From contig CAYUUR010000002.1 of the NCBI GenBank assembly GCA_964448075.1, forward strand, positions 645-64,644: 64,000 nt of DNA, in the 5' to 3' direction. The position numbers and the translations under genes are program-made. Below, one piece after another: positions 5,120 to 63,306 of the stretch. The notes beneath the pieces are model-generated. The model worked only from the letters and a program-made list of their open reading frames with translations, made no database searches and was not told the origin of the DNA. Positions within the stretch are counted from its first letter, which is position 1. Each line of letters starts with the position of its first letter. Origin of the DNA: an uncultured Candidatus Saccharibacteria bacterium. Its GTDB lineage: Bacteria; Patescibacteriota; Saccharimonadia; Saccharimonadales; CAYUUR01.

Positions 5120-6841
5120 TTGAACACATGCTTTTATGGTTCAATAAGCAGTAGCATTATACACAAGTACATAAAAAGTAAAAGAAAAAATATGTTCAAT
5201 AAACTCATCGCTAACCTGCCCTTCAATCCAAGTCTGATAAATCAGGTGGCTTTTTACAGTAAGCGATTACGACGAGAAACCGCCATACGGCGTATGGGCT
5301 TTGTGTTTGTTGCTCTGACATTCTTTGTACAGATGTTTGCGGTATTTGCACCTCCTGAACCCTCACTCGCCGCCTCTGGCAACGATGTCATTTATGGTGG
5401 GTTCAGCTCCATTAGCGCTGCAGCTAATAACTGTAAGAGTGATACGCAGGACTTTCGGAAAATCCTCCAGCACTTTGGTATTACGTGTGAAAACATCGAA
5501 CTCGGCACCACCGTCCAGCTCGGACGTGGCGATTATAATGGACAGCTCTACTCAATGGGTCGTCACCGCGCGAGTCGCGGCTGGGACAAAGAAGTTCAGA
5601 TTGACGGCGCCGGCACTCTCTATATGGGGAAAACCGCAGATCGCTGGCGCGCTAGCAGCTTTAAAGCTATTTCCTTAACGAACTCAGCAGGTGCACAGTT
5701 CTATCTCTTATATGATTGCGGTAACCTCGTAACGGTTGGTCCGCCGACTATACCGCCGCCAGTGGAACCACCACCGCCACCACCTACGCCAGTGCGAGTT
5801 GTCGCCTGTAACCTATTATCGATGAGCCTTCCTGATGGCGGCACAGTAAAGGCTGGTTCACTCGTCAGTGTGCGTGGCCGCGCAGCTGGTCGTAACGTTG
5901 CAGCCAACGAATCAGTCAGTATGTATTACGAAATGACCAACAAAGACACTGGGGCTCGTGTTGGCTTTGTGCAAGAAGCACAAGGGGTTGAATTCTCCGA
6001 AAACGGACCTGGTGACCTCAGGTACGCATCTGACCCAACATGGCGCCGCTTCACCATCGACAATCCAGGCGTCTACCAATTCAAGCTGAGCGTTAAGTAT
6101 GACTCAGCCTCAAAGGACGCCATATTTAACGGTATCAATCACTGTCAGAAAACCATCACTGCAGAGAAAGAAGATGTTTGCCCAGAGTTACCGGGTGATC
6201 AAGACAGTTCAGACCAGTGTGAAGTGTGCCCTATTTCTGGCGATAACAACGAAGAGCTGTGTCTCATCCTAAGTAAGAAAGCTGCAAATGACACACAAAA
6301 CATCGATGACGCCAACGGAAAGGTTGCTCAACCGGGCGATCAAGTCACCTACACATTAACCGCGGCTAACAAAAACAAGAAAGTATACAGGGACTTTGTG
6401 GTTGAGGAACCGATCGCTGATGTCCTCGAGTACGCCGATATCGTTGACTTTCACGGCGGTAGACTTGAGACACTCAACGACGTGCAAATGGTGCTATGGC
6501 CCGAAACCGATATTCCAGCTAACGGCAGTATAGATAAACAACTCACTATCAAGATAAAAGACCCCTTGCCTGCCACCAACACGCCGGCATCCGACCCGGC
6601 ATCATTTGATATGCTCATGACCAACATTTACGGCAACAAGATAGACATTCCTCTGCCTCCACCCCCAAGTAAACGAGTTGAACAGACTATTGGCGCCCTG
6701 CCTAACACCGGTCCCGCTGAGAATCTCGCTGCCGCTGTACTGCTTACAACGTTTGTTGGATACTTCTTTGCCCGTAGTCGTCTTATGAGAAAAGAACTGG
6801 ACATTGTCAGAAGTGAATACGATGCAGGAGGCATAGCATGA
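5120..6841 (+). CDS. LPXTG-anchored cell-wall surface protein with a Pro-rich linker and a DUF11-like repeat domain
   Basis: C-terminal LPNTG, then a hydrophobic segment and an RSRLMRK tail (sortase sorting signal). N-terminal signal/TM (MGFVFVALTFFVQMFAVFA). PPTIPPPVEPPPPPPTP linker. GDQVTYTLTAANKNKK is DUF11-like. The true start may be the ATG at 5183. Confidence 0.75.
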   Translation: MNTCFYGSISSSIIHKYIKSKRKNMFNKLIANLPFNPSLINQVAFYSKRLRRETAIRRMGFVFVALTFFVQMFAVFAPPEPSLAASGNDVIYGGFSSISAAANNCKSDTQDFRKILQHFGITCENIELGTTVQLGRGDYNGQLYSMGRHRASRGWDKEVQIDGAGTLYMGKTADRWRASSFKAISLTNSAGAQFYLLYDCGNLVTVGPPTIPPPVEPPPPPPTPVRVVACNLLSMSLPDGGTVKAGSLVSVRGRAAGRNVAANESVSMYYEMTNKDTGARVGFVQEAQGVEFSENGPGDLRYASDPTWRRFTIDNPGVYQFKLSVKYDSASKDAIFNGINHCQKTITAEKEDVCPELPGDQDSSDQCEVCPISGDNNEELCLILSKKAANDTQNIDDANGKVAQPGDQVTYTLTAANKNKKVYRDFVVEEPIADVLEYADIVDFHGGRLETLNDVQMVLWPETDIPANGSIDKQLTIKIKDPLPATNTPASDPASFDMLMTNIYGNKIDIPLPPPPSKRVEQTIGALPNTGPAENLAAAVLLTTFVGYFFARSRLMRKELDIVRSEYDAGGIA

Positions 6842-7401
6842 GCGAGAAATACATTCCCCGCCACGAACAGCGTGAGCATACACCTGACGCGCACGAAAAT
6901 GTTCATGAACATCAAGAGAGACTCGCCCGAAGCGTTGAACACGGTAAAGAAGCTCGTCATGAACAAGCCGAAAAACTCCCTGAGCTACAAGAACAAGCCA
7001 AAGCAGAAGCAATCAGCGGCAAAGAGTTCAGTGTTGCCGAAAAGGAACAACCCCAACCCGTAAGCAACCTTGAGATTAATCGATCGGTCAAAGAAGCATC
7101 GCGACGACGCGTTATGAAACGCGTACGACGTCATTTGCGGCCTGACGAACGTCTGTTGAGCAAAGTCACCCATCAACCCGTTGTAGACGCTGTCAGTCGT
7201 GCTGCCGAGAAAACCATTGCCCGTCCATCAGGACTTTTCGGTGGCGGCCTAGTTGCATTCGTCGGTAGTACTGCATATTTATGGATCGCCCGTCATTACG
7301 GCTATTCGTACAATTATTTCTTGTTCATTGCACTATTCGTTGGTGGCTTTTTCCTTGGGATGACGATTGAGCTACTCGTAAAAAGCCTTCGCAAGAAGTA
7401 A
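6838..7401 (+). CDS. hypothetical His/Glu-rich protein with a C-terminal double TM segment
   Basis: Start overlaps the upstream stop (ATGA). N-terminus is rich in H/E/Q/R (HEQREHTPDAHENVHEHQE). C-terminal GLFGGGLVAFVGSTAYLWI...FFLGMTIELLV hydrophobic helices. Confidence 0.55.
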   Translation: MSEKYIPRHEQREHTPDAHENVHEHQERLARSVEHGKEARHEQAEKLPELQEQAKAEAISGKEFSVAEKEQPQPVSNLEINRSVKEASRRRVMKRVRRHLRPDERLLSKVTHQPVVDAVSRAAEKTIARPSGLFGGGLVAFVGSTAYLWIARHYGYSYNYFLFIALFVGGFFLGMTIELLVKSLRKK

Positions 7402-7403
7402 CC

Positions 7404-10400
7404 TTACTTCACGCTCGAGTCTGATGAAGTCGGTGGAGTATCCGTTTTTGGCGTTGCCGATGTATCGGCTTCTTGTTTGGGATGAAGCATGCCTTCTTGA
7501 TCAATATATATAGTGTCGTTGCTTTCTTCGTGTACAACTGGCGTAGGGCTCCGACGCAACTTTATCTCACCTTCATGACCTGTTTTAACTGGAATATGCG
7601 GCTTAGGAGGTGGCGGCGTTACATGCAATGGCTGCAGCGATGGCTTTATTTCGGCTGGCTCAGCTTGGGCAGGCGACATATCAACGTGACTTGGCGGTTG
7701 AAGTGGCTGCTGTGGCTGAGTCACAGGTGTAGGCGCGGCGGCTGGAGGTGTATTCAAGTATGTATGGTGAGCTGTAGCAGCTGGTACTGGCGGCACCTGA
7801 CTGTGGTGCAACGGCTGTGGATACGCAGGAGGCATCGGTGCAGGTGTATGCTGGACAGCCGACGGGACACCTGCTGGCACTGGTGACGCGACAGGTCGCT
7901 GGCCAAATGCCGGTGCTGGTTGCGGTGGTACTTGTCTAGCCGGAGGAAAGCCTGTAGTCGGCGGCGGAGCAATTGGCTTCGTTCCACGCTTGGCAAGCCA
8001 GTCATCTAAGAATGAAGATCCGGCTGCAGGTCGCGGTGGCACGGCGCGCCCGGCAGGATACCCTGCTGGAGGATATTGACCAGCGGCCGGCATACCAGGT
8101 CGAGCGCCTGGTCTTGCGCCAGCTGGCGCCAATGGTGCAGGTTGTGACCGCAATCTTTCCATTATCTCACCGCTCACTTTTGCTCTTGGACGGCCATGCT
8201 TAGCCGCTGAGAGCTGTTTCAATGCCTGACCGAGTTGTGTATTAGGTTCACCCAAAAGTGGCACCGTAGACATACTAAAGGACTGCGTTGGAACACCGCC
8301 GATAAGCATTCGAACGATCGCGTTATGATTTGGCACGCGCTGCAGGTCATCGACGTCAAAAACAGGCGCAAATTGTTTGGCCAAGAATTCTGCGTCATTA
8401 GTGCCAACACGAAACGCAATTATTGAACCAATGTTACCAAATACCGCATCGCGAATCTCTTCTGTTAGCTGCGTAGTAAACTGGTTTGCCACTGTTAAGT
8501 TCAATCGATACTTCCGAGCCTCTGACAAAATCGTAGCAAAAGAATCAGTCGAGAAGTTCTGGAACTCATCAACGTACAAAGAGAAATCTTTGCGGTCATC
8601 TTCTGGGATATCTGACCGACTCATAGCTGCAGCCTGGAATTTCATTACAAAGATCATACCGAGAAGCTTGGAGTTTAACTCCCCTGTTTTTCCCTTGCTG
8701 AGATTAACAAGCAGTATCTTGCCTTCATCCATAATTTGTCTGATCTGAAAGGCGCTCTCTGTCTGTCCAATAATATTGCGCATCATCTCATTAGAGAGAA
8801 AGGCGCCAAACTTACTGGCCACCCAGCTCGTGACTTCTCCTGATTCATTGGAGCGCTGTGAGTTTGGCCATTCCTTTGTCCAGAAATCCAGGACGTTCTG
8901 ATCAGTAACGTGCTTAAGTTTTGCTTTCATAAATGCTGGGTCAACCAGTAACTTCGGTATATCAACGAACGTTCCACCTGCAGGGTCAGCCATCAGTAGG
9001 AGTGCACAGTTGCGGAAGATATGTTCAAACCGTGGCCCCATCATGCCCTGTCTGTTTGGATCATACAGCTTATATAGAATGTTGATAGCTTCCTGAATCA
9101 AGAAGTCTTTCTGGTCCGGGTTATCGAACTCAAACAAGTTAAGCCCGAGCGGATAGTCCATATCTGACGGACAGAAGTATATGACGTCTTCGGTACGCTC
9201 TTTTGGCACCATAGACAGTAATCGTTCGGCACCGTCGCCATGCGGGTCGATATACGCAAAGCCTTTACCGTTTAACATGTCCTGGAGTGCCAGATTTTCC
9301 ATCATGGTCGACTTACCAGTACCTGTTTGTCCAACAAGATACATGTGACGACGGCGATCTTCGTCAGCCAGTCGTATTGGCTTTTTGACACCGCGGAAGA
9401 CGTTGTAGCCAAGGAACGTCCCTGTCTCGCTCATACTGCGTGGCCCATCAGCTTGTTTAGAACTTTGACGCTCAAGCTGGGACGTTGGAATGTTCTTCTG
9501 GTCCGGGAAGTGGAAGATTGTTGCAAGCTCAACAGAGTTGAGAATATTCTGGTTACACTCCTGCGGGAAAAAGCGCAAAATATATGCTGTTACGAAGCTA
9601 TCGATGTCCTTCGATGGCGTAAACTTGAACCCGTTGCGCCCTGGCGCATCAAACAACGAGAATGAAGCAACGATATTACTCAATATCGTCTGTGAGCGCT
9701 GCACAACGTTTGACGAAGCTACAACGCGTATCAAAACTTCATAGCCTGGGTGGTTAGTCTTGTCATCTATCGCGTCAACGACCGACTGCTCATGAGATGA
9801 AAGATCAGGCTTGTCGCTACCTCCACCACTCTTGTCTTCTGGCGGTTTAACCAGCGCAGTTGCAAGCTGTTTACCCCACTCGCCGACTTGCGCAGTGCCT
9901 TTCTTGCTCTTATCACCTTTTCGTTTCTTACTTGCTACTGCCTGTGCAGTTTTGCGCCAGTCATTGTTTGCCGGTCGCATTAAGATCTGGATACCAGCTC
10001 CATCTTCTTTATCAAGCGTTGATAGCGCATTCAGAATCGACTGTAGAGCATCACGCTTGAGATCTCGGAATGTCGCGATCGGGTAGGCATATGGCTCCTT
10101 CAAAGTCAGCTCACCGCCAACCGTACCGCTGATCTTGCCCACCGGACTGAATATGTTATGTTCAGCAACCTCCTCAAGGCGTGCGGTCGGGTAGGCACTC
10201 ACAACCGCCTGCTTCACTACATCTACAAGTACAATTGGCACAGCAGCATAGAACTGTACAAAACCTCTCGAGCCGATAATTTCAAAAGCAAAATGCCTCT
10301 GGCCATAAAACTTCGTTTTGAAGCCTTTTTGTACGGTGCTCGATATAATATTGTAAACAACTTGTGCTTTGGAAACGTTTTCATCGTTTACTTCGCGAGC

Positions 10401-10586
10401 ATCACGTCCACCCACTTGGGTATCTTCACTTATTGGCGGTAAATGGATTAGGAGCGGCACCATCTTGAGGCCACGTTCGTAGTTCTTCTGCTCACGCAAT
10501 ACCTTCCTCGAGTGAAGATAAATAGCAAAACCTACCCCAGCAGCCAGTAGTAACAGTACGCAAAGAATGATTAAGAATACGCCCAC
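7404..10586 (-). CDS. VirD4/TraG/TraD-family (type IV coupling-protein-like) P-loop ATPase with N-terminal TM anchor and a ~340-aa Pro-rich low-complexity C-terminal tail
   Basis: N-terminal TM (MGVFLIILCVLLLLAAGVGFAIYL). Walker A (YLVGQTGTGKST), YIDPHGD, Walker-B-like LYVDEFQNF. C-terminal third is P/A/G/Q-rich (PAPLAPAGARPGARPG...PPPPKPHIPV). Confidence 0.7.
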   Translation of the reverse strand: MGVFLIILCVLLLLAAGVGFAIYLHSRKVLREQKNYERGLKMVPLLIHLPPISEDTQVGGRDAREVNDENVSKAQVVYNIISSTVQKGFKTKFYGQRHFAFEIIGSRGFVQFYAAVPIVLVDVVKQAVVSAYPTARLEEVAEHNIFSPVGKISGTVGGELTLKEPYAYPIATFRDLKRDALQSILNALSTLDKEDGAGIQILMRPANNDWRKTAQAVASKKRKGDKSKKGTAQVGEWGKQLATALVKPPEDKSGGGSDKPDLSSHEQSVVDAIDDKTNHPGYEVLIRVVASSNVVQRSQTILSNIVASFSLFDAPGRNGFKFTPSKDIDSFVTAYILRFFPQECNQNILNSVELATIFHFPDQKNIPTSQLERQSSKQADGPRSMSETGTFLGYNVFRGVKKPIRLADEDRRRHMYLVGQTGTGKSTMMENLALQDMLNGKGFAYIDPHGDGAERLLSMVPKERTEDVIYFCPSDMDYPLGLNLFEFDNPDQKDFLIQEAINILYKLYDPNRQGMMGPRFEHIFRNCALLLMADPAGGTFVDIPKLLVDPAFMKAKLKHVTDQNVLDFWTKEWPNSQRSNESGEVTSWVASKFGAFLSNEMMRNIIGQTESAFQIRQIMDEGKILLVNLSKGKTGELNSKLLGMIFVMKFQAAAMSRSDIPEDDRKDFSLYVDEFQNFSTDSFATILSEARKYRLNLTVANQFTTQLTEEIRDAVFGNIGSIIAFRVGTNDAEFLAKQFAPVFDVDDLQRVPNHNAIVRMLIGGVPTQSFSMSTVPLLGEPNTQLGQALKQLSAAKHGRPRAKVSGEIMERLRSQPAPLAPAGARPGARPGMPAAGQYPPAGYPAGRAVPPRPAAGSSFLDDWLAKRGTKPIAPPPTTGFPPARQVPPQPAPAFGQRPVASPVPAGVPSAVQHTPAPMPPAYPQPLHHSQVPPVPAATAHHTYLNTPPAAAPTPVTQPQQPLQPPSHVDMSPAQAEPAEIKPSLQPLHVTPPPPKPHIPVKTGHEGEIKLRRSPTPVVHEESNDTIYIDQEGMLHPKQEADTSATPKTDTPPTSSDSSVK

Positions 10587-10587
10587 G

Positions 10588-10992
10588 TTAGTCCTTGCTT
10601 ACCTTAATATCTTTGTTGTATCGCTTCTTTATGTAGTCGGCTTTTACCAGATTAATCTGTTTGTTCTGAAGATGTGGGTCGTTTCGAGTGTTGTCAACGA
10701 TAGCTTTAGCTTTGTTAACCCACTCTTTTTCAATTAAATCCGCGTCATCGGCCATCAGTTGATCGTCACTGAGTGGCGTTGTCGTGCCTGTTGTGGAGGT
10801 GGTAGCAGGATTGGGCACCGCAGGTATAGCAACGCTCGGCACAGAAATAGACGGCGCTTGCGGTGCTGCCTCTGGACCTATGGCAGAACCTTCGCTTGCC
10901 AGACGTTCTGCGAGAGGATCAACTGCACTCACCTCAGGCTGCGGCTTGGGCAAATTATAGTTTTGTGAGTGGTCGTTACTATTTAGGTTCAT
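10588..10992 (-). CDS. hypothetical protein (Pro/Thr-rich N-terminus), translationally coupled to the ATPase
   Basis: 134 aa; 1-nt spacer to the downstream ATPase gene; no recognisable motif. Confidence 0.5.
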   Translation of the reverse strand: MNLNSNDHSQNYNLPKPQPEVSAVDPLAERLASEGSAIGPEAAPQAPSISVPSVAIPAVPNPATTSTTGTTTPLSDDQLMADDADLIEKEWVNKAKAIVDNTRNDPHLQNKQINLVKADYIKKRYNKDIKVSKD

Positions 10993-11039: not shown

Positions 11040-11453
11040 TTATTGGTTAAAAATATGACTTTTCCGAACATAAAAAACTGTCATTATTAACAGAGTGGCT
11101 AGTAGCAAAATATCGCGAATAGTTAACTGTTCAACAGAGCTCAGCACTAACAGAAATGTCGGTACCGCCGACGCTGAAACGGCAAGCAAACTCACCCGTG
11201 TAACAGACATATTTGGAGTAACCTGATGTAAAAAATACTTAGCAGAATGGTACAAAGCAGCAAAAAAAAGCACAAACGGCACTATAAGCAAAGGTAATGG
11301 AGCGTCTTGGGGGTTCAATAAAAAGATCATGGCCGCCAAAGCCAGCCAAAAAGCTACAATCAGTAGAATTTGCTTATGTTTTTTTACCATGCCTACACTG
11401 TAGCAGTTCATTAAAAAAACATCACGTACTCTGTGATGTTTTATGCGGTTCAA
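11040..11453 (-). CDS. hypothetical small integral membrane protein
   Basis: 137 aa with 3-4 hydrophobic helices; same strand and operon as the ATPase. Confidence 0.5.
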   Translation of the reverse strand: MNRIKHHRVRDVFLMNCYSVGMVKKHKQILLIVAFWLALAAMIFLLNPQDAPLPLLIVPFVLFFAALYHSAKYFLHQVTPNMSVTRVSLLAVSASAVPTFLLVLSSVEQLTIRDILLLATLLIMTVFYVRKSHIFNQ

Positions 11454-11729: not shown

Positions 11730-12275
11730 TTAGTTATGCATTGTTTCTGCGGCAAATATTGCAGCTGGACTGATACGTAAATGGTTTTGCAACATATCAA
11801 CAGCACGTATAATCTTAGTGCGCGATACGCGCTTTTGTGCGCCATCCCATGGGTCAAATATTGTCATCGTTTTGGCACTCGAAGCCAGTACTAATACGAA
11901 ATGTGGATAATGATAATAGGATCCCAACGCGTGATTATCGACATATAGTATGTACGGACGGCTAACGGGATGTTCAAGTAGCTCGGGGATCGAGGTGTAA
12001 TCAATTGAAACGTACTGGTTAGAAAACTGACGTTGCAGCTGGTTTGCATACCCTTTATTGCCAAAACTTATAACTAAGGCACGATTCCGGGCGCCGTAGC
12101 GAACAAACGCCATAAGCATACTCAGTGCGAAATTATCCCGGAAACCAAAAAAACCTTGCTGCATCATGAATCGTTCATAAGTCTCATCGGGCTCTAGGCC
12201 GCAAAGATAGGCCAAACACACACTCAGGCATCCTTGCCCACTCCGCTGTCGATAGTTAAGTTCTCTCATGCCCAT
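11730..12275 (-). CDS. papain-like cysteine peptidase, C39-like (bacteriocin-processing-peptidase fold)
   Basis: Gln-x5-Cys (QRSGQGC), downstream His (HYPHFVLV) and Asp (DPWDG), in the order of the C39/papain catalytic triad plus oxyanion Gln. Confidence 0.5.
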   Translation of the reverse strand: MGMRELNYRQRSGQGCLSVCLAYLCGLEPDETYERFMMQQGFFGFRDNFALSMLMAFVRYGARNRALVISFGNKGYANQLQRQFSNQYVSIDYTSIPELLEHPVSRPYILYVDNHALGSYYHYPHFVLVLASSAKTMTIFDPWDGAQKRVSRTKIIRAVDMLQNHLRISPAAIFAAETMHN

Positions 12276-15919: not shown

Positions 15920-16276
15920 AAAGCTAGATTATCTATAAGCCGGGTTCTGTCCCCAGTAAACTGAGGGCTAATCATCTATCTAGCCTTGTTGTCACCAACA
16001 AGGTCAAGCGGATAAGCGATAAACCGTGGCGGGAACCCTAGTAGGTCTATCTCCTTGCAGCAGACAGGGTTTACCTCCTCCCTACGTCACCGTAGGCAGC
16101 TGTGAGCTTTTACCTCACTCGTTTCACCCGTTCCCAACCGAGGCTGGGCGGTATCGTTTCTGTGGCACTTTCCCTAAGGTTTCCCTCGGTTGCCGTTAGC
16201 AACTGTCATTCCCTACGCTGCCCGGACTTTCCTCCCCGTATAAAATACGCGGCGACTAGCCAATAATCTAGCTCTG
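15920..16276 (-). ncRNA. rnpB: RNase P RNA (bacterial type A)
   Basis: Minus strand carries GGAGGAAAGTCCGGGCAG (CR-I/P4 5' strand), GGGTGAAACGAGTGAGGTAAAAGCTCAC (P10.1-P12 conserved) and ACAGAACCCGGCTTATA (P4 3' strand). The P1 pairing AGCTAGATTAT/ATAATCTAGCT closes the molecule. No ORF of 60 aa or more in ~430 nt. Confidence 0.85.
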
Positions 16277-16286
16277 TTATTATACC

Positions 16287-17042
16287 TTAATTATTTGATT
16301 CTGCTACTTCGTCCAGAACTTTGTTGACCATAGCATCAGCCTCTTTATTCTTTTCTCGCGGCACGTGCGTGAAGGTCACACTGTCAAAGGCCTGCTCACA
16401 CTGCTGCACAATCGCCGCATAAATCGGCCAAAGCTCCTTATTCTTAACCTTGTAGACTCCCTTGAGCTGGTTAATAACCAACAAACTATCCATGAATACA
16501 TTGACGCGTTGTGCGCCGAGTCGTTCAGCATCAAGAAGACCGAGCTTAAGCGCCGTGTACTCAGCTTGATTATTGGTTGTAATGCCCATGTAGTGGCCGT
16601 CACTTTTAAGTATATTCCCATCCATGTCGTAAATAACCCAGCCGGCAGCAGACGGACCCGGGTTGCCACGTGACCCACCGTCACCATACAAACTTACCTC
16701 TGTTATATTTGTGTATTTTTTTACAACATTTCCTTCCACTTCATGCTTTTTTTCATGTGGCTGGAACGAAAAGGTTATCTTTGTAGCTATGAGGTCTGGG
16801 TCAAAGTCGTGCGGTGCAATGGCTTCAACTAACAAGTCTTCGTGGTTAGGAAAATCACGCAATCGCCGACTCAAAACCTCGCGGACAGTGATCGTGCCGA
16901 CAGATTCGGAAGCGTCTTGGCTGACAAGTTCTACAGCCTCGCCGACCAAAAAAGGTGCGGCAGCCCCAACCAACAACAATGCATGGCGTTCGCCGCGGCT
17001 AATTTCTTGGATTGCTTTTTGTGTTACTTGGATCGATTGCAT
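16287..17042 (-). CDS. rnhA: ribonuclease HI with a ~115-aa N-terminal domain of unknown function
   Basis: The C-terminal 135 aa carry the RNase H1 D-E-D-D signature (GDGGSRGNPGPSAAGWVI...TNNQAEYTAL...HVPREKNKEAD). The N-terminal half has no recognisable motif. Confidence 0.8.
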   Translation of the reverse strand: MQSIQVTQKAIQEISRGERHALLLVGAAAPFLVGEAVELVSQDASESVGTITVREVLSRRLRDFPNHEDLLVEAIAPHDFDPDLIATKITFSFQPHEKKHEVEGNVVKKYTNITEVSLYGDGGSRGNPGPSAAGWVIYDMDGNILKSDGHYMGITTNNQAEYTALKLGLLDAERLGAQRVNVFMDSLLVINQLKGVYKVKNKELWPIYAAIVQQCEQAFDSVTFTHVPREKNKEADAMVNKVLDEVAESNN

Positions 17043-17082
17043 CTGTTTCTATTCTACCCTATTTTCCCGTACAATAGCACAG

Positions 17083-18111
17083 ATGAAAATTAGCGACTAT
17101 GATTACCAACTCCCTGACGAACTGATTGCCGACCGACCACCTGAACAACGCGGCAGTACGCGATTATTAGTCTTGGACAAAAAATCTGGTGACATCAGCC
17201 ATCATTACTACGCTGATCTTGCTGACTACCTGGACACTGGAGATCTATTGGTTCTCAATAACACGAAGGTTATTAAGGCGCGTTTGATCGCCAAAAACAA
17301 CGACGGCAAGGAACGTGAGTTATTGCTTATCGAAAAGCATGGTAAAGTATTTGGCGTCCATCAACACAAAGTACTGTATCGTGGCCGTATCCGAACAGGT
17401 GAAGTGCTAACCGTTCATATGCACACTATTATCGTCAAGGAGGTACTTGACGGTGGGCTGGCGATTGTCCAAACAGAGGAAAACTTACTTGACCTCGCCG
17501 AACGTTACGGTGAAGTTCCTTTACCGCCCTACATGAAGCGTCACGCCGACCAAACTGATACTGAGCGGTATCAGACCGTTTTTGCGCGTGACGCCGGTTC
17601 TGTGGCCGCTCCAACTGCCTCACTCAACTTTACTGAGGAGCTAGAGGCCAGACTACGCAACAAAGGCGTACACATTGCCTACCTCACTCTGCATGTCGGT
17701 CTTGGCACCTTCCTGCCCATCCGCACTGACAACGTAGAAGAACACCAGATGCACAGTGAATATTATGAGGTGCCTGAAGAAACCGTTGCCGCAATTCGGC
17801 AAGCCAAAAAGTCCCGTAATAAAGTCTGCGCCATCGGCACCACCGTCACGCGCACACTTGAGTATTGTGCAGCTGACATCCTAGACGACAAGCCACAAAA
17901 CCTATCTGGCGAGGCCAACATCTTCATCTATCCAGGCTATGAGTTTAAGATAGTTGACCAATTACTCACCAACTTCCACGCGCCACGCAGTACGGTACTG
18001 ATGCTCACAGCTGCTTTCGCCGGTTGGGACAACCTCAAATTAGCCTACGAGAAGGCCGTTGAAGAAAAGTATCACTTCCTCTCCTACGGCGACTCTATGC
18101 TGATACGTTAG
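17083..18111 (+). CDS. queA: S-adenosylmethionine:tRNA ribosyltransferase-isomerase
   Basis: MKISDYDYQLPDELIADRP...TRLLVL...GTTVTRTLE is canonical QueA. Start set at 17083; the track ORF from 16663 is an in-frame upstream extension antisense to rnhA. Confidence 0.9.
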   Translation: MKISDYDYQLPDELIADRPPEQRGSTRLLVLDKKSGDISHHYYADLADYLDTGDLLVLNNTKVIKARLIAKNNDGKERELLLIEKHGKVFGVHQHKVLYRGRIRTGEVLTVHMHTIIVKEVLDGGLAIVQTEENLLDLAERYGEVPLPPYMKRHADQTDTERYQTVFARDAGSVAAPTASLNFTEELEARLRNKGVHIAYLTLHVGLGTFLPIRTDNVEEHQMHSEYYEVPEETVAAIRQAKKSRNKVCAIGTTVTRTLEYCAADILDDKPQNLSGEANIFIYPGYEFKIVDQLLTNFHAPRSTVLMLTAAFAGWDNLKLAYEKAVEEKYHFLSYGDSMLIR

Positions 18112-39130: not shown

Positions 39131-40168
39131 TTACACGGCTTGGTGTTCGTTTTCTGCCGATAACTTTGGGCGATAAAAGTCTTTAAGTTGAGCCATGATG
39201 CTCTCCGGTAGGGTAGTGAGTGCGAGGACATAATTGCGACGCTCCTTGAAAGACTGGGCGTAAACAAAGTCAATGTCTTTTTCACTAAGCAAGGGTATAA
39301 GTTTATCTCCTTCGAGAAGAGTGCGATCATGACTTCTGGGTGGGTCTGCAGGATAATGCTTAGTGAAATCACTTGGGTCGAGCCCCTTATCTTTAATAAT
39401 GCGAAGCATTACAGGTAGCGCAAAGAGCTCCGCCCTGTCGGCAATTGATTGATACAATTTCTTCCTGCTTTCATTAGAAATAGTCTCGTTGACAGCAATG
39501 TTTTCTGGACTGTACTCTCCTGCAAATGCATCGCCAAACGCACCCCATATGTAAGTAGGGATAGGGCCATTATAACCAACCTCTTCGGCGCTTTTTGCTG
39601 TCGCTTGGAGTGCACACCAATAGTCCAGATTAGAACGTGAAGGGTCAAGATCGACAACTTCACGACCTTTGGTATTTTCTAGCAAAGAGGCGTATATATC
39701 ATTGTCTTCGTCGGTTCCATTATAGCCGTGTTCAAGAAGCATGTAAGTAAATCTGCTTGTTCTACCGTTTCCGTCTTCGTAAGGATGGATAGCGTTAATG
39801 GATAAACCAAGAATAAGAGCGGCATCTTCTGGTGACGGGGCTTGCTGAGCAGCTTCGTAGGCAAGTCGCATGAGTGGCTCGCGATCCTCTTTGAGCGGAG
39901 GCTGATGTTCAATGCTACTACCGGATAGCACACCTGTTTGTTGTACGAAGCCACCACCGTCCATATGCCTCCCTGAAGTCGGGATGTTACGTTGAAGACC
40001 GTTGAGGCGATTAAGAAGTGATGAAAAGTCTTCGTAGGAGTGTGCTTCAATAAACTGTTTTGCTGCTTCAGGAGTAGCAAATGTCTCTGCTGCACCAAGG
40101 CGCTCCATTAATGCGACGGCGGTAGGGATTGTCTTTGTTTCGATTGTTGGCGTGATTGTTTCAGACAT
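39131..40168 (-). CDS. Fic/DOC-family protein (putative AMPylase/toxin-like)
   Basis: Fic motif HPYEDGNGRTSR (HPFx[DE]GNGR). Start trimmed to MSETITPT at 40168; the track ORF is an upstream extension running into tRNA-Asp. Confidence 0.85.
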   Translation of the reverse strand: MSETITPTIETKTIPTAVALMERLGAAETFATPEAAKQFIEAHSYEDFSSLLNRLNGLQRNIPTSGRHMDGGGFVQQTGVLSGSSIEHQPPLKEDREPLMRLAYEAAQQAPSPEDAALILGLSINAIHPYEDGNGRTSRFTYMLLEHGYNGTDEDNDIYASLLENTKGREVVDLDPSRSNLDYWCALQATAKSAEEVGYNGPIPTYIWGAFGDAFAGEYSPENIAVNETISNESRKKLYQSIADRAELFALPVMLRIIKDKGLDPSDFTKHYPADPPRSHDRTLLEGDKLIPLLSEKDIDFVYAQSFKERRNYVLALTTLPESIMAQLKDFYRPKLSAENEHQAV

Positions 40169-40402
40169 TGTTGTTCTTTTTTTGTTTTGGCTGTTTACAT
40201 CAGTAATATTACCACAAAAAAGTACTAAAGTCAAACTGTAGGGACCCGACCTTCTGCGCACGGCTGCGGGCTTTCTCGGAGCGAGCTCCTGCGAGAGCCC
40301 TTGCCGACCGAACTGGCGATTCGCGTATTTGCAGAGCAAATCCGCATCGCAGACAAGTCTGCCCAATGAAAAAGCCCAGTCGCAAGGACTGGACTCTTTC
40401 AT

Positions 40403-40479
40403 TGGCGGGCCCGACCGGATTCGAACCGGCGATCTCCTCCGTGACAGGGAGGCATGTTAGGCCTCTACACCACGAGCCC
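40403..40479 (-). tRNA. tRNA-Asp (anticodon GTC)
   Basis: Minus strand GGGCTCG...CCTCC-CTGTCAC-GGAGG...GCCGG-TTCGAAT-CCGGT-CGGGCCC-G-CCA. Confidence 0.9.
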
Positions 40480-41119: not shown

Positions 41120-42064
41120 TTGAAACGTAATATATTTGTCATCACAACTGTTGTTCTAGTACTAATCAGCCTTTTTTTGGGCTATCAGCTCTTCTGCTCC
41201 AAGAAGAACGAGATGCCAACTGAAGCACAAGCCAAGTATCCGCTACTCGCCAAGCGTATATTCCTGGAGAACCCTAACGACACCATTGTTAACTTTACCC
41301 CTCTGCGCAAGCAGATAAGCGATTACTTAGCCAAAACAAAAATCCCGCATAGCTTCTACTTCGAATACCTACCGACGGGGTCAAATATCCGCGATGGCGA
41401 GACCAATGAACTAGTCGGTGCTTCTCTTATGAAGATTCCAATCGTCATGGATCTGTACAAAGCTGCAGAACTCGGCAAAGTTGACCTTGATAAGAAAGTG
41501 ACCGTGACCGCAGAAGCCGTCAGCAACGATGGTGTTTACGGCAATACTGACCAGCTCAAGCCAGGCGACAGCCTTACGCTCAGACAAGCCGCAAAAATTG
41601 CGCTCATCGAGTCAGATAACACAGCTGCCTACGTGGTATACGCAAACACAAAAACCGTCCTCAAAGATGATGAGCTGGCCATCAAAAGCCTCGATGTAGA
41701 GTTTGCTGAAACGAACACCGCAACCGGTAGCTACGTATTGATTGGTTCGCGTGCCTATTCTTCCTTTTTGTCATGCCTCTACTTCTCGTGCCATCTCAAC
41801 CGTGAGCACTCCCAAGAAATCCTCAATCAGCTAACTGAATCAAAGGACAACAATCGACTCCGCGCTGGTGTCCCCGCCGATGTCAAAGTAGCCCGTAAGA
41901 TTGGCTCGTTCAGCAAACAAACCCAGAGCGACTGTGGCATCGTGTATATACCGAATCGCCAATACTCCATCTGTTTGATGCTACAAAGCGACGACGCCAT
42001 GACGAACAATCACTTCAAAGCCATCTCTAAAATGGTCTACGATTACGTATCTACCGCTAATTAG
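41120..42064 (+). CDS. beta-lactamase/transpeptidase-fold serine hydrolase-like protein (class A-like)
   Basis: N-terminal TM/signal. S-x-x-K (SLMK), S-D-N (IESDNTA) and a variant KTG box (KIG). Confidence 0.55.
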   Translation: MKRNIFVITTVVLVLISLFLGYQLFCSKKNEMPTEAQAKYPLLAKRIFLENPNDTIVNFTPLRKQISDYLAKTKIPHSFYFEYLPTGSNIRDGETNELVGASLMKIPIVMDLYKAAELGKVDLDKKVTVTAEAVSNDGVYGNTDQLKPGDSLTLRQAAKIALIESDNTAAYVVYANTKTVLKDDELAIKSLDVEFAETNTATGSYVLIGSRAYSSFLSCLYFSCHLNREHSQEILNQLTESKDNNRLRAGVPADVKVARKIGSFSKQTQSDCGIVYIPNRQYSICLMLQSDDAMTNNHFKAISKMVYDYVSTAN

Positions 42065-45000
42065 TTCTGCGATTGCAGTGGAACATCTACGGTCTTTGCG
42101 TCTTTGACGCTGACCGCGGTCCAGGCAAACTCGATGTCCTCGGTGGCGTCTTCTGACAAGATGATCGTAAAGCCCTCTTCGTCCAGGTCGTCATAGGCAA
42201 ACTGCGTGAACTTACCGTTCTTGATGTTAACTGTCACGACCGGAGTATCTTCGTATGGCTTTTCGAATTCTATCTTCACTTTCTTTTGCGTCTTGTAGAT
42301 AGTAGCGAAGCCGGCGGAATCGTTGTTCTGGGTGAGCCGTCCCTCAATCTGCACATCTTTCTGGAAGATAACTGTGTCGACAAATGTTGCAAGGCGGTAG
42401 AAGATCGAGGCGCCGAGGAACTTGACTGGGCCAGCCACTTCTAACGCGCCATTTGCAAACAAGACACCATCAATAGTAAGGTCTTTGCTAACCGTTGCCG
42501 TTTTCACGATGAAGTTATCCATGTCTATTGCTGGTGTTACAGTACCCGTAGTAGTACTGGTGTTTGTACCTGTAGTGGGCTTGCCTGTCAGTTTGCCGAC
42601 TAGGATTTCTAAGCCTTCTATCTTATTAGCCTTGATGCTATCTGCCGTAATGTCTTTGGCGATGATGCTAAGACCATTTACCTCTAGTGCACTGACGCGA
42701 TCAGCCAATATCTCTGACTGCGGCTCGTCCGTTGCCACTTGCTGCTGTTTGCGGCCAAGTAGGTAGCGAATAATCTCGTCTGATTTTTGCAGCTTCTCAT
42801 CCAAGACACCTTCTTGGAGATTAACCAGTGGGCCAAGCACCGTATCTGGCAGTGTGAAGCCTGAGTCTTGGAATTCTTCCATAGCGACCTCTACTTTTTG
42901 ACCACTATAGTCGACCAAGTTCACAAATACCGTTATAGTCGTGCAGCGCAGATTATCTGGACTTCCTTCTGGACAATCAATAAGCGTGTCAGGATTAACG
43001 TCTTCAAGAGCGACACCGACGACTCGACCAGCAGCCACCGCCTTCATGCCGTGCCCCGGGATACTACTAGATGTGATCCTGTCACCAGATTTTATCTTTT
43101 CGTTCGGCTTAAGAGCAACCTTAACTGGCACGCGACCACTGAGAGCAATCGGATACGAATTATCTTCTTGTGGGCCGATGACAATACCCGGCTGGGTTGC
43201 CACAATTCCCAGTGCCTTATCGTCATATGGCTGGCTGGTCCGACGCACCACGCCAACGTTATTGTCTTCTGAGCTAACAATTTCTCCAGCAGTTAGCGAC
43301 TCAAACGAGGTAAAGCGCTCGGCAAGGTCAGCACCACCAACACCACCCACTTCTGAAGACACACCTGCCATACCATCGACAATCAGCTCACCCCGAATCG
43401 AGGATACATTACTGAAGAACTTATCGACGTCTTGCTCGAGATTTCTGTCGAATTTTTCGAACCATACGTTCGCCGAAGAGCCCATTGCCACCACACCGCT
43501 TTCTACCGAGAAGGCGTCAATGTCATCGGCGTCCGTACCCGACCAACTTGTGCTGGTAGTGTCTGTGACACCAGCATCTGAGTGGTAAAGATTTGATATG
43601 AAGGAATTTCCATAACCACCAAAGACGCTGACTGCCCCACCATCACTACCATTACTCGTTCCAACGTATAAGTCAGGGTTTGTGCCTAAGAAGTTCGAGT
43701 TATTGAGTGCGATCGACGTGACCGTATTGGTGTCCCCGTACAATTTCTCCGGGACAACCTCATAGTTTGAATCAGTGCTTGGCGTTACCGTCCAAGCCGG
43801 GCTAACGGTCAGGGTCGTGCCATCGTTGGCAATGACTCGTCTTGACTGACCAGCGCCTGTTCCGCCAGTAATCTCAACCATACTTCCCACAAATGCGTTA
43901 GTGACGTACGACTCTCCAGAGTCACCAATTGTAGTACTACTGCTTGTAGTCGCAGCCGATACGACTGTCGAAGGTTTAGCCAACGCGCTGCGTCCTTCAA
44001 GATATCGTTTCCTGATTTGTGCCTGACTGAGAGTATCAGATGTAGTAGCGCCACCACTGGCAAAGTAGACATCATCAATATCTCCATCCCAGAAGTTTCC
44101 ACCTGCGGCACCACTAGCGTCCGCACCAATCGTTAAAATTTGTGAAGCATCTAACGTACCGGTTGCTCCAAGCGTCGTGTCACAGCCAACGGCTAGTTTA
44201 CCATCAAGGTATAGACATATACCCGTATCCGTATTGAGAGCCACGACATGGTGCCATTGGTTATCGTTATATGTCTGAGTTGAGGTAACAGAGTCATCAT
44301 ACCCAGCAGTTGCAGCGGTATCCTGAATACCAAAAACGATTTGACCACTTGAGTTCATCTCAACCGTGTAGCCGATACCTTCCGTACCAGCAAACGCACT
44401 GTATCGCTTATCAATTAGAACGTCAGTACCTGTAACAGTCGCAGAGTGCTTAAACCACGCCTCTACATGGAATGAGATGGCCGCAACGTTGAAGTCAGCG
44501 TCTGTATCGCAAGTACCGTCATTATTAGCATCTGAACAGAGGAATTGGCTCGTGCCGTTGAATCTCAGCCCTGTGCCATGAACACCATTAACCCCATAAG
44601 TAGGCGCGACTTCTGGTTCAAGTACACTGTTGCGAATAGTTGCATCCGTCAGATCTCCAGATAGGTTATCAAAACTAAACATACCTCGTTGAGTCCCTGA
44701 CATATAACCAGTCTCGCGGCTAATATTGTAGTTCTTCGACCAACCAATAGAAGTACCAGACGCCGTGTTAGTATCGTGAACTTCTGTTAGCCCAGCGCTA
44801 TGGCCAACATATATCAGATCTGCCGCGTCGTCAGCCATCGATGCACGTTCCATTACTTTCAATGCATCAGGCGCACCCACCGCGAATGTTGGTGCGGCTG
44901 CACCATTTGCCACGTGCGGCAGGTTTGCAGCCTGCTCATCAAACACATCCGTAGGTGTTGCCTGGTCAGCTTTCGCTACATCGATACCGACCGTACCGTT

Positions 45001-48000
45001 TGCTTGCGTACCATATCGCTCTACTTGAGATAAGGTTACGTTGAGTCCGTAGAGACGACCTCTCTTCGTCACATAGACAGAGCTAAACTGATCTGTCAGG
45101 TTATCACCAAAATCAAGCGTTTGCTGTGCGGATAGGTTAATGACCGACATTGAATCATCTGTGGCAGCGGCAATAAACGTCGCACCGTTCAGTGGTCCAC
45201 CGTTTGTTTCGACAGAACTTGATCCATACAGCACCGAGCCGTGCACGGCATTTACAGCGTTATGGCGAATGGCCATAGCCGTACGACTATCGATGTTGTA
45301 CGTAACAGCCGTGTTACGGTTGGCGATATTCTTGTCACCCTGGTCTCGGTCAGTTGTGTTGTAGTTGAACAAACGATCACTTGTGAAGTCGATAGCATAT
45401 AAACCGCCTGCTGCCGAACCGTTTGCGCCGACGTACACAACCCCATTGAGCGCAAAGACACTGGAAGGATCATTGTTTGTATCGACGCCAATCGCGTAAC
45501 CAGATGCATTCTGGTTAAATTTCATGAACATTTTATAGTCATTGGCATCAAATATATACACCGCGCTTGAGGTAGATACGATAATCGCTTTCTTTGGAAA
45601 GGCCGACGAACCACAACGAGTGTCACTGGCAATATTACATGCGTCACCATAGCCATCGTTCTTACTCTCTGAGTACCAGCTCAAAGCTCGAGATGTTGGC
45701 GAGTCTGTCCATGCGCCAACATCAGAATCCTTAGTCGTGTCATATACGAAGATATCTGATATGCCCGTAAGGCCAGTCTGTTTTGAGATACCTTTCTTTA
45801 CAAGGTCGCCGTACAAATCAATCTGCCCCGGGCTCGTGGCGCTACCGACCTGGAACGTACCGTCAGTTTTGAGCGTAGCCACGCCACTGCGGTACAGATT
45901 GGTGTCGCGTGATGAGCCAAAGGCAATGCCGGCTGATGCGGTCGTATTATCAGCGTTACCGCTCAACCATAACGTCTGGGTATCTGCTGCATCAATACGC
46001 ACGCCATAGTCAGTGCTGCCAACGGACTGAGCAGCAACTCGAATTCCATAATTGTTCGCGATAGTTGCTCCTGAGACAGTAGCACTATTTATCTGTAAGC
46101 CTGCAGCCGTAGTGACCGTACCTCCACCTGCCATGCCAATCCCGCCCTCAAGCGCATACGCATCGGTCATGGTCCCGCCAAAGAACACACTCGAAACAGC
46201 GCCACTCACTCCAACGGCTTTTACTACGTCTCCACCGGCGACTCCGATTACCCCGCCCGAAAGGCCATAGATATAATCGGCGCTGCCGAAGGCATTACCG
46301 CCAGCCAAAACGTTAATCCCTTTTACGGTGGAGGTGCCAGTTCCAGCGTTGTCACCGCTTACGGTTAAATCCAGACCAAAGGTATTAATTGTCCCCCCGG
46401 TGGCACCTGACCTTGCCACTACTAATTGCTGACCATAGGTATTGTCAGTACCAGTCGTAACTATACCAGTATCTGAAACTGAAACCTTCAGGCTATAATC
46501 GTCCGCCGCAGTGGTATTGGTACTCGTAAACGCCGTGTCTATCTTGCCATTATCAGCAATAGTAAACACAGTCGTGCCATTGTCTTGAATGATGTAGTCA
46601 CCGGTACCGGCAAGGTTGGTGACTACATTGCCGGAGCCGTTATTCGTGATGGTATACGCAGGGTTGTCGGTCGCATCGAGTGTGTAGCTGTAAGCACCGG
46701 TGTCACTCAGCGTCATGAAGGCTGTTCCGTTATCTTGGAACTCGATATCGCCGGCACTTGCCAGGTTGTAGACGATGTCTGCAGCATCAACTGATGCCGA
46801 CGTAACCCGTAGTGGCGAAGCCGTTGAGCCACTAAGTGTAGCAATATCGGTAATGAATTGATCTTGTGCACCACCCCCGGTTGAAGCAGCGTTCTCAGTA
46901 AAGGTAAAGCCGCTTTCGGCTGCCGTCAGTTGCCAATTCCAGACCACGTTGTTTGCGGCATTGTTGATACTTGCCCCGGTCGTTGCAGCCGTCACCTGAT
47001 CGAGCCGCGCTCCGCTGCCACCAGCACCACAGCCTGCATCAGTCGTGTTACAGACGGTCTTTACGACGCCGTTTTCTATAATCTTCACCTTGTTGAGCGT
47101 TGAGTCATAGAACAAACCGCCGCTGAGCGCACTCAGGTTACTCGTTGGGTCAGCAGTTGTGCCGTCGAGCTGTAGAATCGTCGTAGCCGTATCGGTACCA
47201 GTAGAATTACCTATCTTTACCCTGTTACCGCCGCTGCCACTGCGAGTTGCCGTGTCTACTGTCATCACTGTTTCTGCTGCTGAGGCACTTTGTACCAGCA
47301 AGGCACTGCTGGCAGTACTGACCAGATTCAACGCATCGTCTGTTTTGAGTTGATTGGCTGCACCCCGATATAGGTTAGTGTCTCGTGACGTCCCAAATGC
47401 GATACCAGCCGCTGAAGTAGTCGGGTCAGCTTGATCGTTAGCAATCCATAAGGTTTGTGTACTTGATGCCCCCAGCGCAGCCGTATAGTTGCTACCTGCA
47501 GCCGTATTGCCGCCAACGAACAAGCTATAGGCAGTCGTAATTGTTGAGCCGGCACCCTCACTGACCCCGTCAACATACAAACCATAGGCAGTTGGCACCG
47601 TAAATGTAGCCGCTCCTGTAGCCGCTGCAACACGCAAACCAACAACGCTCGTTGGGTTCGTAGGATTCGTAATCGTCGCACCAATATACCCACCATAGCA
47701 ACCAAAGAGACAATCACGAGCACTGGTGAAGTTTTCCCTCACCTCAAGGGCAGTGGTGAGGATGCTTATTAGACCCGGGTCGCCAACATACAAGGCACCA
47801 TCTACCGCCACTCGAGAGGAAAGTGTATCAGCCGTAAATAGTGGTGTACCCGCAGCATTTTGGATTTCGAACGCTGTGGTTGTGTCGTCTCGCGGCCGTA
47901 TAAGCAAAGCCGTATCAATGGCGCCGCTAAATGCTAAAGTGCCGGCAGTGTATGAAAGCGCTGTTGAGCCGGCCGTAAGGCTAATTGCATCGATGTAAAC

Positions 48001-63247: not shown

Positions 63248-63306
63248 AGGTTCAAGTATAGCATAAGCGCGTTGATTCTACCCTGTTTGTGGCGCATTCT
63301 AAGCGC

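Follow-up and report, generated by a model that had tools for sequence, protein, structure and literature searches.

A type IV coupling protein-family ATPase with a DUF8128 domain and a motif-bearing proline-rich tail in Saccharimonadia

The 64,000-nucleotide stretch of DNA analyzed here (hereafter, the window) comes from contig CAYUUR010000002.1 of an uncultured Candidatus Saccharibacteria bacterium. On its reverse (−) strand, positions 7404 to 10586 hold a complete open reading frame (ORF) of 1060 amino acids (aa), and we conclude that its product is an ATPase of the type IV coupling protein (T4CP) family, with an ancestry in the conjugative systems of monoderm bacteria. This assignment is well supported: the sequence of the motor matches TrwB and DotL, its predicted fold is that of TrwB, relatives score above the thresholds of T4CP families in Pfam, and homologs occur in plasmid conjugation clusters. 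It agrees in this respect with the initial annotation, made from the sequence alone, in which the motor had been classed as the coupling-protein type of a type IV secretion system (T4SS). As to function, we favor, with modest confidence, the reading that the protein acts as receptor-motor for the essential T4SS that Saccharimonadia encode at an unlinked position, and that its tail recruits partners.

Saccharibacteria are ultrasmall parasitic bacteria that cannot grow as epibionts without their T4SS, although what this system does and transports has yet to be established (PMC11665869). Should the tailed protein indeed be the receptor-motor of that system, then the motifs in its tail, together with a small protein encoded directly upstream (p134), would be baits for the transported substrates, and the long-standing question of what the T4SS transports would become directly testable. 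The protein is of a known kind in a documented setting, namely a T4CP homolog far from virB4 in Patescibacteria. What we did not meet in the literature found is the clade-specific, motif-bearing tail, the N-terminal domain (N-domain), with its predicted VirB4-like fold, in common with plasmid T4CPs, and the essentiality of SEML1_0142, the syntenic gene of Southlakia epibionticum ML1 (the only relative open to genetic manipulation), and of its partner.

Domain architecture

The protein comprises a transmembrane (TM) anchor, a DUF8128 domain, a T4CP-type ATPase and a disordered tail. Its features, all on the (−) strand, are as follows.

7404–10586 (−): single, complete ORF of 1060 aa
10518–10580 (−), aa 3–23: single N-terminal TM helix (Kyte-Doolittle 19-aa windows >2.8)
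9432–10466 (−), aa ~41–385: DUF8128 (PF26449) domain (homolog records, phmmer, AlphaFold2 and Foldseek)
8151–9419 (−), aa ~390–812: T4CP-type P-loop motor (Pfam, NCBIfam, PDB sequence searches, Foldseek)
9306–9332 (−), aa 419–427: Walker A, GQTGTGKST, invariant in the family
8769–9119 (−), aa 490–606: all-helical insertion between Walker A and Walker B (AlphaFold2 model)
8553–8579 (−), aa 670–678: Walker B, LYVDEFQNF (motif alignment)
8466–8489 (−), aa 700–707: ANQFTTQL, aligned to GLQSTSQL of TrwB, with N/Q...QL invariant
7407–8141 (−), aa 816–1060: low-complexity tail of 245 aa, predicted to be cytoplasmic (composition, alignment)
7986–8015 (−), aa 858–867: tail motif 1, SFLDDWLAKR, predicted to be amphipathic; consensus SFLD[DE]WLAKR
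7482–7517 (−), aa 1024–1035: tail motif 2, DTIYIDQEGMLH, near the C-terminus; consensus DTI[YF]ID..G.LH

The ORF, with its Walker A, YIDPHGD and LYVDEFQNF sequences, had already been recognized in the initial annotation, and we recovered each of these motifs. The start codon is a GTG located 1 nt past the TAA stop codon of p134, the upstream 134-aa ORF, and it is preceded by AAGGAC; together, these suggest that p134 and the T4CP are translationally coupled.

The hydropathy scan, which covered the whole protein, found no further hydrophobic segment of similar score outside aa 3–23; at aa 103 and aa 112, single 19-aa windows barely passed the cut-off of 1.6, with 1.62–1.65. Directly after the TM helix, aa 24–40 contain five K/R residues. 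The predicted topology is therefore N-out/C-in, with everything past the anchor in the cytoplasm. Because there is one N-terminal TM helix with a positive C-flank, and because the ATPase is necessarily cytoplasmic, the tail is also placed in the cytoplasm, and the earlier suggestion that it might span the cell envelope is not supported.

The first ~720 aa had been described as one membrane-anchored NTPase. Whilst the anchor is borne out, the region is not a single NTPase, since aa ~41–385 correspond to DUF8128, nor does the fold end at residue 720. The conservation profile, for which the query was aligned to its 120 closest homologs, and the AlphaFold2 (AF2) model, in which strands and helices continue to aa 812, both place the end of the folded, conserved portion at aa ~812–815; residues 720–815 are highly conserved and modeled as strands and helices.

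A coupling-protein-type motor

The Walker A, Walker B and Q..QL motifs of the motor are invariant among 53 homologs and align with the corresponding motifs of TrwB; YIDPHGD is present at aa 445–451. In the AF2 model the insertion at aa 490–606 consists of seven helices and occupies the position of the all-alpha domain of T4CPs. When sequences in the PDB were searched with the single sequence, with the family profile and with the motor alone, TrwB, as the best match, and DotL/IcmO, as the second best, were the only ones at E <0.01. The motor was modeled by AF2 with a predicted local distance difference test score (pLDDT) of ~80, and in Foldseek the model aligned with TrwB over ~440 columns, which is nearly all of TrwB-deltaN70, at TM scores of 0.61–0.65; Cagbeta, DotL and HerA were matched as well.

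Pfam matches of the query itself were marginal. T4SS-DNA_transf (PF02534) reached 20.4 bits, the cut-off being 20.1, and TraG-D_C (PF12696) reached 19.1 bits, below its cut-off of 22; DUF87 was likewise marginal, and the NCBIfam TraD matches were weak. In a relative that is 40% identical over ~840 aa (P0160), TrwB_AAD_bind (PF10412) scored 45 bits and PF02534 29 bits, both above cut-off. In PADLOC, the motor (8151–9419, −) matched mad8 (mads_8) with an E-value of 5e-16, better than any Pfam T4CP model. This match probably reflects the T4CP/HerA ancestry common to that component of a defence system.

Canonical T4CPs such as TrwB, VirD4 and TraD have two N-terminal TM helices. The protein described here shares with TrwB of R388, VirD4 and TraD (PDB 1E9R/1GKI) the Walker A and B motifs, the Q..QL motif, the all-alpha insertion and an N-terminal membrane anchor, but it has only one TM helix, a cytoplasmic DUF8128 domain of ~345 aa between anchor and motor, and a proline-rich tail of 245 aa. 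It is 17–18% identical to TrwB and, unlike TrwB, is encoded on a chromosome, is essential in a relative, and has no relaxase or T4SS genes nearby.

The DUF8128 domain

Of the 120 closest homologs, 119 have a recorded PF26449 match, among them one that is 94% identical to the query (P0001). A phmmer search with aa 41–387 returned 1,320 representative clusters, in which the domain is always N-terminal and follows a TM helix. The N-domain was poorly modeled within the full-length protein (pLDDT 45–70), and AF2 with aa 26–400 alone and a deeper alignment gave a pLDDT of 80.6 and a predicted TM score of 0.79. In Foldseek, this N-domain model was significantly similar only to the TrwK/VirB4 chains of R388 (E 5e-6 to 2e-4; query-normalized TM score, 0.42–0.44; ~10% identity), the next matches having E >0.01. 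The predicted fold of DUF8128 thus appears to resemble the N-terminal domain of VirB4/TrwK, at a modest TM score.

The same resemblance extends to the full-length model, whose best Foldseek match is TrwK/VirB4, aligned end to end over ~900 columns. With VirB4/TrwK (R388, PDB 7O42/8RTD) the protein has in common the layout of an N-terminal domain followed by a C-terminal motor; it differs in that the Pfam signatures of VirB4 were not found and its motor is closer to those of T4CPs. Two points are relevant to the divergence of T4CPs and VirB4, namely the VirB4-like fold predicted for DUF8128 and the occurrence of this domain in plasmid T4CPs of Actinomycetota and Bacillota (see below).

The proline-rich tail and its motifs

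Beyond aa ~815, identity among the query and its 120 closest homologs falls to 0.15–0.2 and gaps rise to 40–50%. Proline accounts for 59 of the 245 residues of the tail (24.1%, vs. 4.9% in the body of the protein; binomial p ~2e-24), and disorder was inferred from this composition and the poor conservation. A tail of ~340 aa, encoded around 7404–8430, had been reported initially; the richness in proline was correctly noted, but the tail is shorter, at 245 aa (nt 7407–8141). Nor is it almost pure low complexity, as had been stated, because two conserved islands, at aa 857–868 and aa 1024–1035, hold the motifs at aa 858–867 and 1024–1035. The pattern of motif 1, FL[DENQ]xW[LMIV]x[KR][KR], is found in 117 of 121 close homologs, 28–66 residues into the tail. 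A strict pattern for motif 2, [DEG][TEDS][IV]x[IVL][DN]xxG, is found in 95/121, its median distance from the C-terminus being 24 residues, and the listed misses mostly contain looser forms. Neither motif occurred in any of 2,400 shuffled tails.

Tails of the 120 closest homologs range from 118 to 389 aa, with the C-terminal motif in frame, and in relatives with 45–65% identity in the N-domain, which most likely belong to Saccharimonadia, the tails are rich in P/A and measure about 120 to 1,214 aa. Although its length had been remarked upon, the tail of the query is therefore not exceptional, given that relatives in its clade have tails of up to ~1,200 aa. Even proteins of 1,267–2,006 aa terminate in GE[IV][YF][IV]DxxGN[VI] (GEVYVDERGN in the one of 2,006 aa). 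In distant DUF8128-T4CPs, with 28–36% N-domain identity and lengths of ~810–880 aa, the tail is absent. From these comparisons, the tail is specific to the clade of the query, varies greatly in length, and keeps a terminal, docking-type motif. An origin by tandem repetition or misassembly, the latter raised in the initial annotation, was ruled out, since the orthologs have tails with the terminal motif in frame and Tandem Repeats Finder detected no DNA tandem repeat beneath the tail.

In known T4CPs, C-terminal tails recruit partners: TraD of the F plasmid binds TraM, and DotL binds IcmSW, LvgA and DotN. By analogy, it is plausible that the present tail also recruits partners, and its two conserved linear motifs would fit such a role. 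DotL/IcmO of Legionella (PDB 6SZ9) and F TraD are thus T4CPs with C-terminal extensions, but their tails are not proline-rich and have no motif in common with that of the query.

A core chromosomal gene with a conserved upstream partner

Protein searches gave >7,800 matches, the best of which were Candidatus Saccharibacteria/Saccharimonadales proteins of 935–1,207 aa. With one genome per species scanned, at least 598 relatives were recovered, and the best 80 of these are 69–89% identical to the query over 815 aa and all come from Saccharimonadia or Patescibacteria metagenome-assembled genomes. The synteny check at these 80 loci covered the window's own neighbor genes, and found a near-fixed order: infC, comM (yifB), [tm137], p134, T4CP, [tm187 and a surface protein, both on the opposite strand], gyrB, gyrA. 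Judged from identity and gene order, the T4CP gene belongs to the core chromosomal genes of Saccharimonadia. Its neighbors in the window are the following.

10588–10992 (−): p134, small and disordered at its N-terminus, 1-nt gap upstream of the T4CP gene; 79/80 loci
11040–11453 (−): tm137, small, divergent multi-TM protein, upstream of p134; 27/80 loci
6838–7401 (+): tm187, TM-anchored at its C-terminus, convergent with the T4CP gene; 55/80 loci
5120–6841 (+): surface protein of 573 aa, with the sortase-type motif LPNTG and a C-terminal TM segment; 54/80 loci

The N-terminus of p134 is variable, and a conserved C-terminal helical segment of ~55 aa has the consensus ADDxDLIEKEWVxKAKxIV..T..DP..QN.....KADYxKKRYNK. 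No match to p134 was found in Pfam, NCBIfam or PADLOC. It is likely to be a partner of the T4CP protein.

Plasmid homologs and tail-less relatives

A tblastn search of plasmids with the motor gave 616 records, among them motors of Shouchella and Embleya that are 26–32% identical. Three plasmid proteins lie within conjugation gene clusters.

Embleya (Actinomycetota) linear plasmid NZ_CP108778: 812 aa, N-terminal TM helix, no tail; hhalign E 1.3e-53 over 718 columns
Shouchella clausii plasmid NZ_CP012476: "DUF87" protein of 883 aa, no TM helix; hhalign E 9e-41 over 643 columns, DUF8128 included
Bacillus amyloliquefaciens 65-kb plasmid: 942 aa; linked by tblastn (25.8% identity) and annotation only

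The 718 columns aligned with the Embleya protein span the TM-proximal region, DUF8128 and the motor. That protein therefore has the whole arrangement of TM helix, DUF8128-like domain and motor, and differs from the query in lacking a tail; it is encoded next to PrgI, a VirB4-like ATPase, a Replic_Relax relaxase and NlpC/P60. The Shouchella protein has DUF8128, the motor and a disordered C-terminal tail in common with the query, but it is without a TM helix and its tail, of ~160 aa, is acidic and not proline-rich. Its neighbors are Replic_Relax, TcpC, TcpE and an AAA_10 ATPase of 837 aa, and those annotated beside the Bacillus protein, whose link is by tblastn and gene order only, are Replic_Relax, a conjugal transfer protein, PrgI and an ATP-binding protein. 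Unlike the gene in the window, these plasmid T4CP genes lie inside clusters of T4SS and relaxase genes, and no p134-like gene precedes them. The occurrence of DUF8128 and motor in such clusters therefore identifies the coupling-protein type of monoderm conjugative systems. Such an ancestry matches the published placement of Patescibacteria VirB4, nested within the MPF-FATA class (PMC12102498).

The plasmid motor closest to the query (37% identity) is a stand-alone ATPase of 395 aa on Sulfitobacter plasmid NZ_CP081110.1 (L089, 8977–10164). It is too short to include the ~390-aa region of TM helix and N-domain, is encoded among transposases, and the plasmid is typed as non-mobilizable; from its sequence and surroundings it appears to be an orphan, motor-only form in a proteobacterium.

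The P0160 family of other Patescibacteria resembles the query in having a TM helix, DUF8128 and motor, in being chromosomal and in lying far from virB4. Its members, of ~810–890 aa and 40% identical over ~840 aa, differ in lacking a tail, in their stronger Pfam T4CP signals and in belonging to a different conserved cassette. This cassette was observed at three listed loci (L086, 9437–13772; L087, 9472–18550; L088, 9496–13750), and it encodes an upstream protein of ~170 aa, a TM-anchored methyltransferase-like protein of ~176 aa, a protein of ~205 aa, and the tail-less T4CP. The ~170-aa protein has a disordered N-terminus and a helical C-terminus ending in ...IPGVNKFFxEQEAKIKTD, and the ~176-aa protein combines its TM anchor with a GxGDGR motif like that of S-adenosylmethionine-dependent methyltransferases. 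No Pfam match is on record for any of the partner proteins, and BLASTP of the cassette proteins against the neighbors in the window found no match. Homology between p134 and the ~170-aa protein was considered and rejected (hhalign of alignments of 75 and 120 sequences; probability 0.3%). At two of the three loci, dnaX lies near the tail-less T4CP gene.

Essentiality in Southlakia epibionticum ML1

Transposon-insertion sequencing (Tn-seq) calls for ML1 were taken from Tables S1 and S2 of Wang et al. 2023 (PMC10633639). They are given below for time points T0/T1/T2 as essential (ES), growth defect (GD) or non-essential (NE).

SEML1_0138, YifB: NE/NE/NE
SEML1_0140, hypothetical protein: NE/GD/GD
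SEML1_0141, hypothetical protein of 139 aa, counterpart of p134: GD/ES/ES; 0 insertions recovered vs. 9 in the input
SEML1_0142, syntenic T4CP gene (NZ_CP124550.1, 136753–139812), 1,019 aa: ES/ES/ES; 114 insertions in the input, 11/11/9 recovered
SEML1_0143, hypothetical protein, counterpart of tm187: NE/NE/NE
SEML1_0144, DUF11 protein, counterpart of the surface protein: NE/NE/NE
SEML1_0145 and SEML1_0146, gyrB and gyrA: ES/ES/ES and GD/ES/ES
SEML1_0293, second T4CP paralog, 921 aa, PF10412: NE/NE/NE

The order in ML1, from YifB through SEML1_0141-0142-0143-0144 to gyrB and gyrA, is that of the window. As the ML1 counterpart of tm187 is non-essential, tm187 probably stands outside the core module. 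Despite the essential call, ~10% of the insertions in SEML1_0142 survive, and these may sit in the tail.

The ML1 T4SS cluster, SEML1_0006-0019, is also essential and was said to be without recognizable coupling and relaxase proteins (PMC10633639). A T4CP homolog of ML1 has been stated to be non-essential and perhaps exapted (PMC12102498). We infer that this statement refers to SEML1_0293, since it is the sole non-essential gene of the two T4CP-type genes that we found in ML1. SEML1_0293 has Pfam matches to PF10412, PF12696 and PF01935 and an N-terminal region of ~360 aa to which no domain is assigned. SEML1_0142 is discussed neither in the main text of PMC10633639 nor in PMC12102498, and a full-text search for its locus tag returned no paper.

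Receptor-motor of a distant T4SS, or a machine of its own?

According to the reading that we favor, one TM helix would anchor the protein in the membrane, with DUF8128 and then the motor on the cytoplasmic side, where the motor, presumably a hexamer, would hydrolyze NTP. For DUF8128, the VirB3/VirB4 platform would be a possible docking site. The tail could serve as a flexible tether, whose two short motifs would dock the co-translated p134, adaptors or secretion substrates, and the motor would deliver its cargo, presumably something other than relaxase-bound DNA, to a distant chromosomal T4SS of MPF-FATA-like type.

Several observations weigh against this reading. No T4SS gene is linked to the T4CP gene in the window, at two Saccharimonadia loci with listed genes (L001 and L002) or near SEML1_0142, and in ML1 the latter and the T4SS cluster are ~113 kb apart. 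SEML1_0142 belongs to class I (essential at T0), which numbers 61 genes (PMC10633639), whereas most T4SS genes belong to class II (GD at T0), and this difference hints at a more basic role; the orthology of SEML1_0142 is based on synteny, length and annotation. The query itself clears the Pfam T4CP threshold by a small fraction of a bit score (20.4 vs. 20.1 bits). Finally, T4CP homologs were reported in 2,918 of 3,035 Patescibacteria genomes and VirB4 in 2,417/3,035 (PMC12102498); T4CPs being the commoner, some copies may work without a T4SS.

The distance from T4SS genes is itself the norm in Patescibacteria, where only 148 of 5,713 T4CP homologs lie near virB4 (PMC12102498). The initial annotation had noted that VirB4, VirB6 and relaxase genes are missing from the window, and indeed none of these domains was found by Pfam among the 45 ORFs scanned (nearly all those of ≥150 aa, save for overlaps in alternative frames). 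The suggestion made there, that this may be an orphan serving another export route, is not supported in that form, given that norm and the presence of a chromosomal T4SS elsewhere, as with SEML1_0006-0019 in ML1.

A possible alternative, to which we give clearly less credence, is that the protein is an exapted translocase that has lost contact with the T4SS and forms, with p134, an essential membrane machine of its own. Such a machine might import or handle nucleic acids or macromolecules derived from the host, or serve a process of the envelope or cell cycle. Exaptation was raised by the authors of PMC12102498 themselves, and it would agree with the wider spread of T4CP homologs than of VirB4 in Patescibacteria, with the class I rather than mostly class II essentiality, and with the constant housekeeping neighborhood (comM and gyrBA; dnaX near two of the three other listed loci). 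Moreover, the tail-less relatives occupy a conserved four-gene cassette of their own with no T4SS gene, and ComEC is dispensable, hence another route of nucleotide acquisition is being sought. Against it, coupling proteins inside the conjugative T4SS clusters of Actinomycetota and Bacillota have this architecture in full, the genes beside the T4CP gene include none for a channel-forming partner, and the essential T4SS of ML1 was reported to be without a recognizable coupling protein, a vacancy that this protein fits. The predicted similarity of DUF8128 to the N-terminal domain of VirB4 also suggests docking on the inner-membrane platform of a T4SS.

A bolder variant, which we regard as rather improbable, is that DUF8128-T4CPs form a distinct and ancient branch with a VirB4-like N-domain, intermediate between VirB4 and VirD4, and that in Patescibacteria they would have become, with p134, an essential T4SS-independent machine whose tail captures cytoplasmic partners, for example for the processing or import of host macromolecules required by these auxotrophic epibionts.

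Three other explanations are unlikely. The first is that the protein is an assembly or pilus-biogenesis ATPase of VirB4 type, and not a substrate receptor. It is true that TrwK/VirB4 is the best Foldseek match of the full model (~900 columns) and the only significant one of the isolated N-domain, but the TM scores to VirB4 are low (0.29–0.44) and the profile matches go to TrwB and DotL. A VirB4 signal was sought at the sequence level and not seen: no signal for the VirB4 N-domain was found in Pfam at E up to 1, PF03135 (CagE_TrbE_VirB) matched neither the query nor nine relatives at E up to 1, PF12846 (AAA_10) gave a single, non-significant match in one relative (E 0.079; 12.4 bits vs. a cut-off of 27.5), and VirB4 chains were not among the matches of the three PDB sequence searches. 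In addition, ML1 already encodes SEML1_0008 as its dedicated VirB4, along with a TrsD-like protein, and the plasmid homologs adjoin a separate VirB4-like ATPase.

Less likely still is an FtsK/SpoIIIE-like translocase for chromosome segregation, with the proline-rich region as a linker-like segment. The motor does belong to the same FtsK-HerA superfamily, Wang et al. assigned SEML1_0142 in ECOD to the FtsK motor 2IUT, and the gene is essential and close to gyrBA. Yet in structure the protein is most similar to VirB4, TrwB, Cagbeta and DotL, and not to FtsK/SpoIIIE, which the initial annotation had held out as a conceivable result, and the proline-rich region is C-terminal and not between TM helix and motor. 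No FtsK_SpoIIIE, FtsK 4TM, alpha or gamma domain of Pfam matched the query at E ≤0.01, and FtsK_SpoIIIE in relatives was non-significant (E 0.02–0.16). The protein as a substitute for FtsK was ruled out on account of this absence of a significant Pfam match and of the canonical, essential FtsK of ML1, SEML1_0096.

The weakest explanation, a remnant of an integrated conjugative element or a defence ATPase (HerA/MADS mad8-like) with a tail produced by drift or artefact, draws on the PADLOC mad8 match (E 5e-16), weak HerA matches and the homologs on plasmids, and it is most improbable given the chromosomal position fixed in 80 species at 69–89% identity over 815 aa, the tail motifs conserved in frame, the lack of further mad genes, of a relaxase or integrase and of repeats at the locus, and the syntenic gene that is essential by Tn-seq when Cas9 and Cas1 of the same genome are non-essential. 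A defence role was rejected, as the mad8/HerA match is confined to the motor and the neighbors have no PADLOC match.

Other genes of the window

The 573-aa surface protein has weak, sub-threshold DUF11/DUF7927 and CLIPPER-like matches and a poly-proline stretch, PPTIPPPVEPPPPPPTP. A 181-aa ORF between tm137 and comM (11730–12275, −), present at 2/80 loci and without a family match, looks like a lineage-specific insertion. The remaining genes are housekeeping genes (gyrBA, infC, RNase P RNA, queA, tgt, thrS, miaA) and type IV pilus genes. RNase P RNA (15920–16271, −) adjoins an RNase H/RVT_3 gene (16287–17042, −), which in turn overlaps with the 5′ portion of the queA ORF (16663–18111, +) as it was mechanically called; in this form, the latter has a TTG start and a Pfam match that begins at aa 144, and its start is probably over-extended. 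An ORF of 3,534 aa (42061–52665, −), with Laminin_G_3 (concanavalin-like lectin) and GDSL lipase domains, probably encodes a large surface protein. A 423-aa protein with a Fic/DOC domain (39131–40402, −) is encoded next to a tRNA gene (40406–40479). Toward the end of the window, a XerC/D-like tyrosine recombinase gene (59290–60213, +) adjoins the type IV pilus block (60210–63990, −), which encodes a PilX_N protein, an N-methyl pilin and an A24 prepilin peptidase.

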